In this document: in pieces, positions 1-6,614 of the stretch
Numbering within the stretch: position 1 is the first letter of the stretch
Layout of the letters: every line of letters starts with the position of its first letter
UHGV virus genome: UHGV-1349127
Source of the DNA: a virus
Length of the DNA stretch: 6,614 nucleotides
Reading direction: 5' to 3' (one strand)
The notes under the pieces: generated by a model
What the model saw: only the letters and a program-made list of their open reading frames with translations
The model's database searches: none
Told to the model about the DNA's origin: nothing
Made by a program: the position numbers and the translations under genes

Positions 1-606
1 AGACCAAGCCTGATGAACAACCTGATACACATCCATAGAAGACATATGAATAGGCATATTCCACAAAATAAGATGGTAATGAGGCAGTTTTGTATTACTG
101 CCATATTCAGCGGCGGCAAAATACCGAATTTTCTCATCATAACCATGGTCTCTAATAAGAATTTGACGCAAACGTTTAAGAAAATCTTGTACATGTTTTT
201 TATCTACACCGTCCGCGGGACGGTGTATGGGATTGTAAGTGAGGGTAATAAAATAGGGGACAGAACGGGACGACTGCGTTTCTGCAACAGCTCGAAACAT
301 CCATTCACGGGCGTTCCTCTTTCGACAAAGACCACATTTACGGCATGGAGTTGCCAAGAACATAGGTACGACGTCACCATCGCGGTCAATGGCATAAAAA
401 CTGTCTTGCCATGAAGCAAGGCCTTGAAAATCAATGTTTTTCGGCGAAAACAGGGCATACGGAAAGTTCCAACGCCATGCAGCGAGTTGCATTTCCGGTA
501 CAAAAGTTGCATTTCCATCATAAACATATTTTCCAGTTTGTAAAAGTGCATCCTTAAAAGCAGGATTTAAAATATATTTTGGTTTTTCACAAAGAATATT
601 TGTCAT
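1..606 (-). CDS. Replication initiation protein VP4 (rolling-circle HUH endonuclease), N-terminal 202 codons. Start ATG is the complement of 604-606. The ORF has no stop before window position 1 and appears to continue at 6614 if the molecule is circular.
   Basis: Hand translation of the minus strand gives MTNILCEKPKYILNP...ATPCRKCGLCRKRNAREW...SVPYFITLTYNP...EYGSNTKLPHYHLILWN...QAWS. This carries the microvirus VP4 hallmarks: N-terminal C-x2-P...NP, a CxxC zinc-finger-like PCxKCxxC, RCR motif I (FITLTY) and motif II (PHYHLIL). The start has an A-rich leader (AAAAATAAAAAACTATG). It is absent from the ORF track only because no stop falls inside the window. Confidence 0.85.
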   Translation of the reverse strand, partial: MTNILCEKPKYILNPAFKDALLQTGKYVYDGNATFVPEMQLAAWRWNFPYALFSPKNIDFQGLASWQDSFYAIDRDGDVVPMFLATPCRKCGLCRKRNAREWMFRAVAETQSSRSVPYFITLTYNPIHRPADGVDKKHVQDFLKRLRQILIRDHGYDEKIRYFAAAEYGSNTKLPHYHLILWNMPIHMSSMDVYQVVHQAWS

Positions 607-619
607 AGTTTTTTATTTT

Positions 620-775
620 TAATTTGGGCGTCCGGGCGGGCTATCCGCTCAAACAAATCGGCTTCGCCGATACTCGCTCCTATCCCTGACGCGCTTCACT
701 TCGTTACGCTATGCATTCCGGCGTCATCCGAGATGACAGAGCGGTGTTCGCGCTCCCGCGCTCACGAATTTCATA
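620..775. other. GC-rich structured island (~59 % GC against ~40 % for the genome) immediately upstream of the Rep start.
   Basis: Counted 88 G+C in the 150 nt at 621-770. It contains several short GC hairpins: ATCGGC-TTC-GCCGAT (657-671), GTCATC-CGA-GATGAC (723-737), and GAGCG-GTGTTCG-CGCTC (739-755). A 16-codon minus-strand uORF (MKFVSAGARTPLCHLG, 774->724) starts in the same AATTATG context used by three genes. Confidence 0.5.
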
Positions 776-800
776 ATTTCCTTTTATCTCTCAAGATGTG

Positions 801-808
801 CAAAGATA
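801..808 (-). promoter_or_regulatory. Weak candidate -7 promoter element TATCTTTG (TAnnTTTG) on minus strand, upstream of the GC-rich island and Rep.
   Basis: It matches the Bacteroidetes -7 consensus but has no convincing -33 TTTG at the expected spacing. It would give Rep a ~190-nt structured leader. Confidence 0.15.
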
Positions 809-844
809 AAGTGTAGGCTAAAATATCGTTTATCAACCTGAGCC

Positions 845-884
845 AAACTATGTTAAAGTCGCTGCGCTTGGTTTAACATAGTTT
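845..884. repeat. Perfect 13-bp inverted repeat AAACTATGTTAAA / TTTAACATAGTTT separated by a 14-nt GC-rich spacer (GTCGCTGCGCTTGG).
   Basis: Seen directly. Arms are 845-857 and 872-884, with 13/13 complementarity. Stems are AT-rich and the loop is GC-rich. No U-tract follows on either strand. It is intergenic, ~240 nt upstream of the Rep ATG on the coding strand. Confidence 0.6.
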
Positions 885-984
885 ACCACAGAACGCCAAA
901 CGCTATTTTTTCCTACGCATTGTTTTATTGCACGTCTCGAAAGAAAAAAGGAAAAATATGCTTTGATGTTTGCGATAGATAAGA

Positions 985-1059: not shown

Positions 1060-1076
1060 GGAGCGCAAGGCGCTCC
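1060..1076 (-). other. GC-rich hairpin GGAGCGC-AAG-GCGCTCC (7-bp stem, 3-nt loop).
   Basis: Perfect inverted repeat seen directly. It lies ~60 nt downstream (minus strand) of the 93-aa ORF stop. No U-tract follows immediately, so it is not a canonical terminator on its own. Confidence 0.5.
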
Positions 1077-1117
1077 ACATTCAGATCTATTCACACAAGC
1101 TGAGCAATGTGTCAGTT

Positions 1118-1137
1118 GTGCTAAATATATCAAGTTA
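1118..1137 (-). promoter_or_regulatory. Candidate Rep nick site / viral-strand origin. The minus strand reads TAACTTGATATATTTAGCAC.
   Basis: Compared with the phiX174 origin CAACTTG^ATATTAATAACAC it matches 15 of 20 positions. A contiguous 10-mer AACTTGATAT spans the phiX nick position (G^A). It occurs once in the window, on the coding (virion-sense) strand as in phiX174. It sits at the head of the long intergenic region. Confidence 0.35.
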
Positions 1138-1416
1138 GACAATGCTGGATGTTTCACCCAGTCCACAAGTTAACTGACAAAAGTCAGTGTAAGAGAATAC
1201 TGCACGAGTTGTGCGGCCACAGTATGCTGCATCGATAATGCCTACAAATAGATATGTAGATCGATATGTTTGCTGCATATGATCCGTAAAAGATACAGCT
1301 CTATCCGCTATTTCTAAACCTAAAGCATGATAAGTTGTATTACAAGGTATATCTGTAACTTTTATATACTCTTGTTTCTGCTTCCTAATGTTTAAATACT
1401 GTAAAAGAATGTCCAT
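1135..1416 (-). CDS. Hypothetical protein, 93 aa, downstream of VP2 (positional analogue of gokushovirus VP3).
   Basis: ATG start in the same AATTATG context as the VP1 and 103-aa starts. A sigma(ABfr)-like promoter match precedes it. Non-repetitive sequence with 4 Cys. No recognisable family. Its stop codon is embedded in the phiX174-ori-like motif. Confidence 0.35.
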   Translation of the reverse strand: MDILLQYLNIRKQKQEYIKVTDIPCNTTYHALGLEIADRAVSFTDHMQQTYRSTYLFVGIIDAAYCGRTTRAVFSYTDFCQLTCGLGETSSIV

Positions 1417-2939: not shown

Positions 2940-5207
2940 TTATTCAATATGAGGTATAGAGTTACGAGGAATAGTAGTTTTCTTAGTAATATCAAAAGCA
3001 ATACTACCTAAAATCTTATCGCCATTTTCGGAAGTCATAGCAAATACATCATTAACATGATCGGGGTTCACAAGTAAGAAATCATTTGATAGTTCAGGAG
3101 CTTTATCGAATACACGATTGATAAGGAAGTTTCTCATAGAACCACGGAATTCACCATGTACTTCATCAAACGAAGCAATCAGATCCCAATATGCGCGCTG
3201 ATAACCAAATACATTATCAACGTGCTGAGGATTCACAGCATAGGCCTGATACGGACATAAGTGCTTATAAAGCATAGGTTGATAACTTATGTTATTGAAT
3301 TGTGGGAAATGCCAATCCAAAAGGTTCATGCGTGTGAAATGAGGAGGTAACAACTGTGAATAATTCGCAGCAGGTACAACAGACATAACACCAAGTATAT
3401 AACCGTCTTCCGGACAATACTTACGAATAACATGTCGCATACCAGACTGTAGAGAACCTTGGCCAGCAAAACTACCTAACGGATTACCCTCGGTAGGCGT
3501 AGTTTGAGTTACCTTATATACAGGGATAGTATCAGAAATACCACCAAGAAACTCAGGCATCATAAGTTCATCATAATCCAAATCAACATTAAAAAGACCT
3601 TTTGCAAGATTCTTATAACGCGGGGATTGACGAACGCGAATCTCAAGGAAACGCTGGAGTGAGTTAACGTTACGAATATCCGAGATAGATACACCAGAAG
3701 TAGCCATACCTATAAGATTTCGAACGACATCAGAAGGAGCATTAGAACTCTTAACTTGGAAACCTGTAACAGTATCTCCATCTTCGGCAGTCTCAAGTTG
3801 AGCATGATATTCAGTTCCAGCAGCATCACGGAATGTAGCTTCACCAAGAGAAGTAATACCTACGAGAGGAGCAATACCGGCTTGAGGAGACTGTAAGGCA
3901 GTAGTATAAGCGTCAGGCTCCCAATTAGCATAATGTAACTGATATTTATAAGTATCTCTACCACCTTTTACAGAAGGTACATAACGATTATATTCAGGTT
4001 TACCGTCTACAATAAACGGGTTATTACGAATATCACGACCAAAAGCATTGTAATATGCTTCGTATGCACGGAAAGGCAAAGCAGACAACGGAATAGCAGG
4101 AAGCTTGTCGGTAGCAGCGGTATAAAATGGACAGTTCGGGCCCGTGGGTTTCGTCCATTCAAAAGACCGATAAATAACAGAGATAGGAGAAGCATAGAGT
4201 TGAGAAATAAACTCTTGTGTAAGGCCTGCACGAATAGTTGTTGTAGAACCAAGTTCGTACAAAGAGTACATGTAAGGTTTCTGATAAAGTTCATTACGAA
4301 ACTCGAAGACCATGCACAGCTTAAAAGAAGTAAGACTCTTGCCTAAATCAACATTGAAAGTAAGGGTATCACCTTTTATATCAATCTCATTAAACTGAGC
4401 TGACCAAATCTTAGGAGCATTCTCATTTTCATAAATAGTAAAACCGACAATAGGCTTACTATCATAATCAGAAATCATTTGGCGTAAAAGAGCAAACCGA
4501 GTCAACGGAATTTGTAGAGTAACATTTTGTGTAGGCGTGTCATAACGAACACTGTAAGGAATAGCCATACAACGAGGCGCAGCGTAACCGTAAGAGCCTG
4601 TATTTGCAAAGTCCTGTACAAAAACATCTCTGAAATTAGCAGTAGAATTAAGAACGGTACTCAAAGTAGTAAAAGCAACACCACTTGTAACCGGAGAACC
4701 GACCAAAGGAGCTTTCAAGGCAGGTACATCAGACTTAAAATTGAACAAATCAGCAGTACGAGCAGCGATAACAGAACCGCCATAAGTACCAGTAATTGTC
4801 GTTGGTACACCAAGGTAATCAGCAAGAGTACCGGTTTGTAAGTCATCATCAACATTAAATTGTTTATGACCTTGCACAGTATCTTCAGCAGTAGGGTCCA
4901 TCCATGGAGGAGTCACAGTTTCATCTCCACCGAAGAAAGACATCCAATCTTCCCAAAGAGTACGAGTGCGGACATAAACAAAATGTAACCGTGCATAGAG
5001 TTGAGTCTGTATCGGGAATACAGTCGGAAGGAGTTGGAGATTAAAGCGCGCACTTATCTGAAATGAGTCACCAAACGATACCGGAAGCAAACACACGGGA
5101 GTAATAGCTCCGAACTTCATTGTAAGGTTATTCACAAACGAAAGGTCAAACGTAGAACGATTAACACGATCTACATATGCGTCTTTTTTACGAAATACAT
5201 TAGCCAT
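2940..5207 (-). CDS. Major capsid protein VP1 (Microviridae F-protein family), 755 aa.
   Basis: The N-terminal region MANVFRKKDAYVDRVNRSTFDLSFVNNLTMKFGAITPVCLLPVSFGDSFQISARFNLQLLPTVFPIQTQLYARLHFVYVRTRTLWEDWMSFFGG matches the conserved gokushovirus/alpavirus VP1 N-terminus (R-S-x-FDLS...G-x-L-x-P...V-x-PGDSF...R...P...P...L...FVP-R-LW-NW-x-F). It is the longest ORF in the window. Size 755 aa fits the Alpavirinae-type VP1 range (650-780 aa). ATG start with an A/T-rich leader. Confidence 0.93.
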   Translation of the reverse strand: MANVFRKKDAYVDRVNRSTFDLSFVNNLTMKFGAITPVCLLPVSFGDSFQISARFNLQLLPTVFPIQTQLYARLHFVYVRTRTLWEDWMSFFGGDETVTPPWMDPTAEDTVQGHKQFNVDDDLQTGTLADYLGVPTTITGTYGGSVIAARTADLFNFKSDVPALKAPLVGSPVTSGVAFTTLSTVLNSTANFRDVFVQDFANTGSYGYAAPRCMAIPYSVRYDTPTQNVTLQIPLTRFALLRQMISDYDSKPIVGFTIYENENAPKIWSAQFNEIDIKGDTLTFNVDLGKSLTSFKLCMVFEFRNELYQKPYMYSLYELGSTTTIRAGLTQEFISQLYASPISVIYRSFEWTKPTGPNCPFYTAATDKLPAIPLSALPFRAYEAYYNAFGRDIRNNPFIVDGKPEYNRYVPSVKGGRDTYKYQLHYANWEPDAYTTALQSPQAGIAPLVGITSLGEATFRDAAGTEYHAQLETAEDGDTVTGFQVKSSNAPSDVVRNLIGMATSGVSISDIRNVNSLQRFLEIRVRQSPRYKNLAKGLFNVDLDYDELMMPEFLGGISDTIPVYKVTQTTPTEGNPLGSFAGQGSLQSGMRHVIRKYCPEDGYILGVMSVVPAANYSQLLPPHFTRMNLLDWHFPQFNNISYQPMLYKHLCPYQAYAVNPQHVDNVFGYQRAYWDLIASFDEVHGEFRGSMRNFLINRVFDKAPELSNDFLLVNPDHVNDVFAMTSENGDKILGSIAFDITKKTTIPRNSIPHIE

Positions 5208-5822: not shown

Positions 5823-6614
5823 TTACAAAGTTTCTTTATAAATAGCAAGAATATTCTCGTTATCTGTTTTATATTTAACATACGTTATATCAATCTCGGG
5901 TAGCGTTGACATATATTCACTCATGAACTCGTGATGTTCACGCTTAGCAGAAGTCATCATTTTGTAATATTCGAGATCAAACTCATAAGCGTCAAGCATA
6001 GCTAAAAGAGGTTCAAGAATATGTTCCATGACGATAAGACTATCTTCCTGATGAATAGCATAAAAGTTTTTCGCGTTATCAAAGATAAAACGAGGGAAAC
6101 GTTCTACGCAAGTGTCAAAATTGTAGAAAGGATACTTGTCTCGAAGGCGTTTACGAGTCACATTAACTTCTTTATCAGGCATATGAAGATGTATCTGCCA
6201 GAGACAGGCACGAAGTGACAAAAAGTAATCGGCAAGCTGAATAGTATCGCGTATCTCTTTCCGAATAAGCATAGAGGGGGTCGGATAAAGTTTTCGACGG
6301 AAATATGCAGGAATATACGAGGTAAAACGTTCACCTGTAAACTTATCAACGATTTCAACGGTCAAAACGTCAGGATTCTGATAGAACCACATAACATGGT
6401 CGAGACACCATTTATAACCAAGACCGCCGCCACGGCGGGAGGATAAGTAAAAGGTTGGTTTAGAACCTTTAGGAACATCACTTTCTTTACGCATATATTT
6501 CATACAATACTGAATACCACCTTGAGTACAGGGTTTACAATAGACAAAACCAAGTTCACCTATATAATCCCAATCAAAGCGATGAGCAAGTTTGTTATAA
6601 ACTCGTTTTCGAAC
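5823..6614 (-). CDS. Replication initiation protein VP4, C-terminal 263 codons (37 codons from 6614 to 6504, then the 226-aa track ORF). Contains RCR motif III. Stop TAA is the complement of 5823-5825.
   Basis: Minus-strand reading from 6614 has no stop: VRKRVYNKLAHRFDWDYIGELGFVYCKPCTQGGIQYCMKYMRKESDVPKGSKPTFYLSSRRGGGLGYKW... The YCMKYMRK segment matches the Microviridae Rep active-site motif III (Y-x-x-K-Y-x-x-K, compare phiX174 A FYVAKYVNK). The following FxxSRRxGxG also resembles the conserved post-motif-III segment. The frame is exactly contiguous with the Rep N-terminal part ending at position 1 (606 and 111 are both multiples of 3). Spacing from motif II to motif III across the junction is ~47 aa, as in known VP4 proteins. 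The M at 6503 in the ORF track is an internal methionine inside motif III. Confidence 0.8.
   Translation of the reverse strand, partial: VRKRVYNKLAHRFDWDYIGELGFVYCKPCTQGGIQYCMKYMRKESDVPKGSKPTFYLSSRRGGGLGYKWCLDHVMWFYQNPDVLTVEIVDKFTGERFTSYIPAYFRRKLYPTPSMLIRKEIRDTIQLADYFLSLRACLWQIHLHMPDKEVNVTRKRLRDKYPFYNFDTCVERFPRFIFDNAKNFYAIHQEDSLIVMEHILEPLLAMLDAYEFDLEYYKMMTSAKREHHEFMSEYMSTLPEIDITYVKYKTDNENILAIYKETL

Follow-up and report, generated by a model that had tools for sequence, protein, structure and literature searches.

The circular virus genome UHGV-1349127 (hereafter the window, meaning the whole analyzed stretch of 6,614 nt) is that of a microvirus, a group that ranks among the most abundant phages of the human gut. 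Ahead of its replication gene rep, it carries a two-part sequence element that is described here as a candidate origin of viral-strand replication. The window is a complete circle, with a rep frame that is continuous across both ends and no terminal redundancy. Every long open reading frame (ORF) lies on the minus strand, on which the features below are also read. The 465-aa rep ORF begins with an ATG at 606, wraps the circle, and resumes at 6614; its 5′ part occupies 1..606 and its 3′ part, in frame across the window ends, 5823..6614. The remaining minus-strand ORFs comprise three small ones, a 755-aa capsid protein (Pfam Phage_F, PF02305, E 2e-48), a 103-aa ORF, a 372-aa VP2-like ORF, and a 93-aa ORF (1135-1416) that has no match in Pfam. 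After the 93-aa ORF, a non-coding region of 528 nt (1134-607) extends up to rep. A search of the whole window against Rfam gave no credible match. Alpavirinae-like traits are a Phage_F capsid nearest to those of gut microviruses of ~6 kb, a VP2, a VP4-type Rep, and a circular genome of ~6.3-6.6 kb; judged by these, the window is an Alpavirinae-like microvirus, where "like" denotes an assignment made without phylogeny. Its closest GenBank records are human-gut Microviridae, and relatives were found integrated in Bacteroides and Phocaeicola assemblies.

The element consists of two boxes separated by a spacer. Box 1, TAACTTGATA (1128..1137), is the predicted recognition and cleavage core of the replication protein Rep; the AT-rich variable spacer, TATTTAGCAC (1118..1127), has a fixed length of 10 nt; and box 2, AACTGACACA (1108..1117), is the predicted Rep-binding or "key" box. 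A conserved origin block of 89 nt (1078..1166) surrounds both boxes. The minus strand reads GTCTAACTTGATATATTTAGCACAACTGAC at 1111-1140, the single-stranded window sequence carrying the site being CATTGTCTAACTTGATATATTTAGCACAACTGACACATTG, and the predicted nick, TAACTTG^ATA, lies between G 1131 and A 1130, in register with G4305/A4306 of phage phiX174. In the record NC_001422, the phiX174 origin is CAACTTGATATTAATAACACTATAGACCAC, with rep_origin annotated at A4306. An initial annotation of the window had drawn attention to this likeness, and its counts agree with NC_001422: 9 of the 10 bases of the phiX174 decamer are kept (the first base is T in the window and C in phiX174), 10 contiguous bases are identical across the nick position, and 15 of 20 positions match overall. 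Also correct were the placement on the coding strand, which bears every gene, and the embedded stop codon of the 93-aa ORF (TAA 1137-1135), a feature of box 1 that is confined to the clade of the window. The annotated span covered box 1 and the spacer but omitted the second conserved box at 1108-1117, and the CAC that was counted toward the likeness falls in the variable spacer.

The 10-mer AACTTGATAT occurs once in the window (1127-1136). A chance likeness to the phiX174 origin that carries no function could draw on two observations. An exact copy of the 10-mer on either strand is present in 7 of 200 dinucleotide-preserving shuffles (3.5%, close to the 1-3% initially estimated), and the full phiX174 30-mer finds no match in the window at up to three mismatches. 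The likeness is limited to the two boxes. Past the shared 10-mer, the window and phiX174 agree at nine of the 19 bases that follow (P ~0.04 at a per-base chance of 26%). Evidence against chance comes from the conservation of the element in other phages.

A Rep-based scan of IMG/VR yielded 28 loci, 25 of which carry TAACTTGATATA[T/A][G/A/T]TAGCACAACTGAC at a distance of 476-566 nt upstream of rep. L016 and the partial contig L027 do not contain the region and were left out of the motif count, and the distant locus L028 holds a variant of the motif. Both sequence checks named in the initial annotation, presence and position of the motif in close relatives, thus came out in its favor: wherever the region is present, that is, in 25 close relatives, TAACTTGATA-N10-AACTGACAC is kept and its position is unchanged. 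L016 was rejected as a motif-less relative: in this IMG/VR contig (1-5426), tailed-phage-like DNA meets a microvirus rep precisely at its codon 3, the region is missing, and the contig is most likely an assembly chimera. Mean pairwise identity within the clade reaches 98.5% over the 30 nt of boxes and spacer, which is the maximum of the locus, and amounts to 95% over the 89-nt block (motif-relative -29..+59, about 1079-1166), 80% over the first 220 nt of rep, and 60% over the body of the 93-aa ORF. The exact 23-mer has zero matches in IMG/VR because the spacer of the window is unique, and the exact pattern TAACTTGATA-N10-AACTGACACA is present in 45 IMG/VR contigs, all of them 4.1-8.3 kb long.

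Between lineages at ~50% Rep identity, the 89-nt block is near-invariant and its flanks are unalignable; L030, L031, and L071, whose Reps are 50-53% identical, keep CCAGCATTGTCTAACTTGATA-GAAAATGC-ACAACTGACACATTG. Genomes with Reps of 32-42% identity keep only TAACT[T/C]GATA, a differing AT-rich spacer of 10 nt, and AACTGACAC, the flanks being unrelated. The spacer is herein constant in length (10 nt) and lineage-dependent in sequence, with ~20 distinct spacers per group and an A+T content of 66-70%. In these comparisons, the conserved unit presents itself as bipartite, consisting of TAACTTGATA and AACTGACACA at a fixed gap of 10 nt. The window Rep matches the Pfam family PF23343 (REP_ORF2-G2P, E 2.8e-18), which is also matched by Chp2 ORF4 and phiX174 protein A. 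It contains the motifs FITLTY, H176-Y-H178, and Y238-C-M-K-Y242-M-R-K, of which FITLTY, H176-Y-H178, and Y238-x-x-K-Y242-x-x-K are invariant in nine diverse Reps; the tyrosine spacing equals that of protein A. BLASTP aligns the window Rep with protein A only in a 32-residue stretch at the HUH motif, with 28% identity (E 0.03). The cis site is hence preserved far more strictly than the protein that is predicted to read it.

A profile of the nine Reps retrieved loci by protein alone, and these loci, together with six GenBank genomes found by Rep similarity and four reference gokushoviruses, form a sample of 77 genomes. CTTGATA (up to one mismatch)-N13-TGAC is present on the Rep/coding strand in 70 of the 77 genomes and on the opposite strand in two, compared with an expectation from shuffles of 2.1 per strand. 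Most of the remaining genomes hold variants that a position matrix recognizes; these have an additional base in the spacer or two changes in the core. Across 61 distinct sites, CTTGATA is conserved to at least 90%; TGACAC does not vary in either Alpavirinae-like or gokushovirus-like genomes, and its distance from box 1 is constant. Judged by their capsid proteins, genomes of ~6 kb cluster with the window and those of 4.0-4.8 kb with Chp2 and phiMH2K at 31-42% identity; the smaller genomes are therefore referred to as gokushovirus-like. In all of them the site falls between genes, 43-530 nt ahead of rep in the Alpavirinae-like group (528 nt in the window) and ~1.25 kb past the rep start in the gokushovirus-like one. 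A looser 16-base pattern gave, among the IMG/VR matches listed, at least 71 new loci; at least 48 of these carry a microvirus major capsid protein or Rep, always on the motif strand, and the other 23 among the matches listed are chance matches in other viruses. A two-box matrix, built from non-Bullavirinae sites only, was scanned over both strands of three Bullavirinae genomes and placed the true origin at rank 1 of 10,774 positions in phiX174, of 11,156 in G4, and of 12,176 in alpha3. This recovery of the mapped phiX174 origin from sites of other phages argues against a chance likeness, as does the extreme strand- and position-specific conservation among Reps that are 28-97% identical, and such a likeness is left with a probability close to nil. 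The phiX-type origin proposed in the initial annotation has gained from the same results, with a site that is strand-specific, intergenic, and kept at 28-52% Rep identity.

The motif pattern is also present in six bacterial assemblies, Bacteroides and Phocaeicola included. Dif-like attachment sites were described by Krupovic and Forterre at the ends of Bacteroides microvirus proviruses, one of them upstream of rep, and the element could be such a XerC/D site; one sublineage has the spacer ATAATGTATA, which resembles the dif center. However, the dif-like spacer is confined to this sublineage, and the element is non-palindromic, showing neither the arms of the 28-bp quasi-palindrome nor a match to the XerD arm. 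The motif, furthermore, is present in many gokushovirus-like genomes, and in Gokushovirinae dif-motifs were reported to be rare outside the enterogokushoviruses. On the 3.7-Mb Bacteroides sp. f07 contig, VP2 is followed without a break by the motif and rep, and the bacterial BatD, TPR, and universal-stress-protein (Usp) genes start just past the rep stop; therefore, the junction is not at the motif, which lies within the provirus. An attachment site is, on this evidence, extremely improbable. The integrated microvirus of f07 (L147, ~5080-5200) has a Rep 62% identical to that of L034, and its right junction lies at most ~70 nt past the rep stop, beside the Usp gene and the Bat/TPR cluster. A complete relative of the window with 78% identity in Rep and 85% in VP1 (L152, the same as L025; contig41 of Chitinophaga silvisoli, 6,689 nt) forms a separate contig in an isolate assembly, which is either contamination or a hint of a non-Bacteroidales host.

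Given the position of the site after the last late ORF and ahead of rep, a transcription signal, be it a rep promoter or operator or the end of the late operon, was weighed as well. TTGATA resembles a -35 hexamer, and terminator-like hairpins with T-rich tails are located on the minus strand at 1025-1009, 85 nt past the origin, and at 671-657. No sigma-70-like promoter was predicted at the motif on the minus strand, however, and the gokushovirus-like site lies far past the rep start and not upstream of it. The motif is equally conserved in gut phages, environmental gokushovirus-like phages, a Spiroplasma virus, and coliphages; conservation over such different sources fits a phage-encoded reader and not the host RNA polymerase. 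A role in transcription is thus regarded as very unlikely for the motif. The hairpin at 1009-1025 itself could end the late operon, and that at 657-671 is the inner hairpin of a GC-rich element that is described below.

The same geometry of CTTGATA-N13-TGACAC, on the same strand and in an intergenic place, is presented in two ways. In the gokushovirus-like form, the site follows rep and the core is located in a hairpin loop, whereas the site of the window precedes rep and has no hairpin. Herein, CTTGATA lies in the loop of a stem with at least six uninterrupted pairs at 61 of 89 distinct gokushovirus-like sites; the stems have 34 distinct sequences with compensatory change and a median free energy (dG) of -9.5 kcal/mol, and individual folds reach z scores of -4 to -7. 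SpV4 has the same hairpin layout with ACTTGTTATA and ATTGAC, and phiMH2K has a 9-bp stem around CTACTTGTTGTAA. The motif is likewise inside a hairpin in two metagenome-assembled genomes (MAGs), a Phocaeicola vulgatus MAG (L148, 4969; TTAGCATAA...TTATGCTAA) with a differing gene order in which the motif comes after the capsid gene, and a "Rickettsiales" MAG (L151, 6593; GCCTGTTACATA...TATATAACAGGC). None of 46 Alpavirinae-like sites has such a hairpin (median dG -2.25), and the DNA fold at the window site, with a dG of -2.3 kcal/mol and a z score of -0.3, is no better than that of shuffles. A weak CTAA/TTAG stem at the window site was rejected as a hairpin, as it is not kept in relatives. Without a hairpin, the window site therefore resembles that of phiX174, where none is involved.

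Around the core of the window, three short hairpins are present on the minus strand. Hairpin h1 (ACTGAC-TTTT-GTCAGT, 1173..1188) lies upstream of the core inside the 93-aa ORF and has five of six pairs changed on both sides across nine sequences; h2 (CTGGGTG-AAA-CATCCAG, 1145..1161) lies directly 5′ of the core, with 95% of cells paired and one compensatory pair, UA/CG; h3 (GGAGCGC-CTT-GCGCTCC, 1060..1076) lies ~30 nt 3′ of box 2 and has five of seven pairs changed on both sides. Over h1-h3, 88% of cells are paired, compared with 73% in shuffles and 34-42% with the partners slid. The ACTGAC copies in h1 were set aside, since they are not kept in relatives. The three covarying hairpins, together with two features that come after the core, a long hairpin and a GC-rich structured element, would suit a cis signal for packaging or for priming of the complementary strand in place of a nick site, and packaging is coupled to origin processing in phiX174. 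Priming signals, though, are usually host-specific hairpins, and the conserved part here is unstructured (z ~0) and identical to a known cleavage core; it is the hairpins that differ by lineage and the two boxes that stay constant. We consider a packaging or priming signal in place of a nick site very unlikely.

The long hairpin is an imperfect single-stranded DNA structure of ~190 nt at 777-954 (folded over 760-970, minus strand; dG -40.5 kcal/mol, z -6.0). It is near-invariant in the clade, and its apex is a 13-bp inverted repeat with compensatory changes. It sits in an insert of ~400 nt between origin and rep for which lineages with a short VP2-rep intergenic region have no room; the inverted repeat, named initially as an alternative nick site, was rejected as such on this ground. 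The GC-rich element (610-692, minus strand) lies directly ahead of the rep start codon (ATG, 606) and consists of GCGTCAGGGATAGGAGCGAGTATCGGCGAAGCCGATTTGTTTGAGCGGATAGCCCGCCCGGACGCCC followed by an A/T-rich leader; GC content is 59% over 625-774. Microviruses that are otherwise distant carry it too, at 77-84% identity, and three of them have it after the capsid gene, immediately ahead of the start ATG of a 107-aa gene. For this element, RNAalifold predicts 22 pairs, 11 of them with compensatory changes, and there is no Rfam match. The element could be a complementary-strand origin or an RNA of the 5′ untranslated region, and a complementary-strand origin may likewise be the role of the second structured intergenic module as a whole.

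Taken together, the motif is read as the viral-strand (+) rolling-circle origin, of the phiX174 type, of an Alpavirinae-like microvirus, with a probability of roughly 0.85 as estimated from sequence comparison. In such an origin, the HUH Rep, with Y238 and Y242 as catalytic residues, would bind the double-stranded replicative form at box 2, AACTGACACA, and the AT-rich spacer of 10 nt would melt under negative supercoiling. Rep would then cut the virion strand in box 1, TAACTTG^ATA, between 1131 and 1130, remaining joined to the 5′ A and leaving the 3′-OH of the G to prime the host polymerase. After one round, the second tyrosine would cut the regenerated site, the first linkage would be resolved, and a circular single strand would be released for packaging. 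Rep binding, melting of the spacer, the exact cut position, and the termination step are all inferred within this scheme.

Several points weigh against this reading. The Rep-based sample is limited to lineages with two peptide patterns in common, and a single clade makes up most of its gokushovirus-like portion. The Chlamydia phages Chp1 and Chp2 have no convincing site on the coding strand; a high-scoring site in Chp1 lies on the antisense strand inside a gene and was taken as a chance match. The classical gokushoviruses phiMH2K and SpV4 carry only variants of the core (ACTTGTTGTA and ACTTGTTATA), in hairpin loops. The element is therefore widespread and not universal. The predicted cut position is derived solely from the register with phiX174, and sequence alone cannot separate a role in packaging or termination from one in initiation. 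Apart from GAC and a few other bases, box 2, AACTGACACA, differs from the right half of the phiX174 origin, ACTATAGACCAC, and the window site is intergenic, whereas that of phiX174 lies inside gene A, which is a Bullavirinae trait and not a mechanistic one. As to the two variants, the candidate origin of phiMH2K (L141, 3295-3345) is TTCGGCTAC-GGACCCTACTTGTTGTAA-GTAGCCGAA-CTCACAG between annotated genes, and that of SpV4 (L142, 510-560) is GGGGCATAT-ATTACTTGTTATA-ATATGCCCC-ATTGAC in a record that annotates the capsid gene only; both candidate cores have ACTTGTT and not ACTTGAT.

Two neighboring features touch the origin block. A second TAACTTG (1166-1172, minus strand), followed by TGGAC, precedes box 1 by 35 nt. 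Most members of the clade of the window keep it, and genomes beyond the clade do not; it reads GAGCTTG in L001 and TTCTTCG in the 50% lineage, and may be a pseudo-site or a part of the origin block. The 93-aa ORF is a putative gene: its body reaches only ~60% identity in relatives with Reps of 78-97% identity, its final ~30 codons share sequence with hairpins h1 and h2 and with the conserved origin block, and the GenBank records L030 and L031, at 50% Rep identity, have no coding sequence annotated at its place.

On a broader scale, CTTG^ATA-N13-(T/A)GAC might be an origin code ancestral to most Microviridae. This larger proposal, which stands at even odds and only as a whole, holds that the code is presented in two modes, a hairpin loop in gokushovirus-like phages and a linear AT-rich form in Alpavirinae-like and phiX-like ones, that it would have persisted while the Reps diverged almost past sequence recognition, and that the intergenic region of the window would additionally carry a mobile second module made of the long hairpin and the GC-rich element. 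If it is true, the origins of thousands of uncultured microviruses could become readable from sequence, and Rep/origin modules are perhaps partly interchangeable between subfamilies; this family-wide pattern, a single bipartite code presented in two modes, is a more interesting by-product than the origin itself. A sequence-readable origin by itself would let thousands of metagenomic genomes be numbered from a natural zero point on a defined strand, and would provide a specific marker of microvirus DNA including proviruses, a defined oligonucleotide substrate for tests of Rep, and a starting point for single-strand DNA vectors based on Rep and origin in Bacteroides.

In the literature searched, no paper joins Alpavirinae with "origin of replication" and none joins CTTGATA with Microviridae. 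Gokushovirus combined with "origin of replication" leads to virome surveys, work on the evolution of single-stranded DNA viruses, and a phage review; the review is silent on a microvirus origin. The Alpavirinae, 81-genome, and enterogokushovirus papers do not mention an origin, nick, or hairpin, and the GenBank records of Chp1, Chp2, phiMH2K, SpV4, and gut microviruses contain no rep_origin feature. No described replication origin was found outside the phiX174 group in this search, which did not cover older papers on Chp2 and phiMH2K, where an early mention is possible. CTTGATA is already known as the nick core of phiX174 and pC194-type replicons, and such an origin is, as far as found, new in the present lineage.

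Among known systems, viruses with circular Rep-encoding single-stranded (CRESS) DNA, such as circoviruses and geminiviruses, also encode an HUH Rep that nicks a short conserved sequence on the coding/virion strand and stays covalently attached. Their origins have a different nonanucleotide and an obligatory hairpin with iterons, and their Rep, which is fused to a helicase, contains one tyrosine only; none of these distinguishing features is present in the window. The Rep_1 (PF01446) proteins of pC194/pUB110-type double-strand origins, with an active site of one tyrosine plus a glutamate, form a different Rep family and belong to plasmids and not phages. These origins lack a TGACAC box at +13 and have HUH-type chemistry and the nick site in common with the window: CTTGATA has been documented as the sequence nicked in Rep_1/pC194-type origins, the pC194 origin being TTCTTATCTTGATAATAAGGGTAACTATTGCC (...TTATCTTGATAATAAGGG...). 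With CTTGATA at the nick sites of both phiX174 and pC194, the core is therefore a hallmark of these rolling-circle replicons.

The closest counterpart is the Bullavirinae origin, the 30-bp target of gene A protein. Its second (right-half) domain we take to be the Rep-binding part. The 30-mers of phiX174 and G4 are identical, and alpha3 differs in the spacer only (CAACTTGATA-ATAGTAAC-ACTATAGACCAC); all three have CTTGATA, 14 bases, and GAC, which is the register of the window. In phiX174, cleavage takes place between G4305 and A4306, and roles have been assigned to Tyr343 and Tyr347 (2026 preprint). Synonymous changes in codons Q107-D115 of A (CAA CTT GAT ATT AAT AAC ACT ATA GAC) are detrimental and co-localize with ori+; therefore, the functional element reaches the GAC triplet. 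Unlike phiX174, the window has three covarying hairpins flanking its origin. Common to both are the core AACTTGATA with a cut expected after the G, an AT-rich spacer that tolerates change, GAC in register, the location on the virion/coding strand, the absence of a hairpin at the core, and an HUH Rep of the catalytic family PF23343 with tyrosines spaced as Y-x-x-K-Y.

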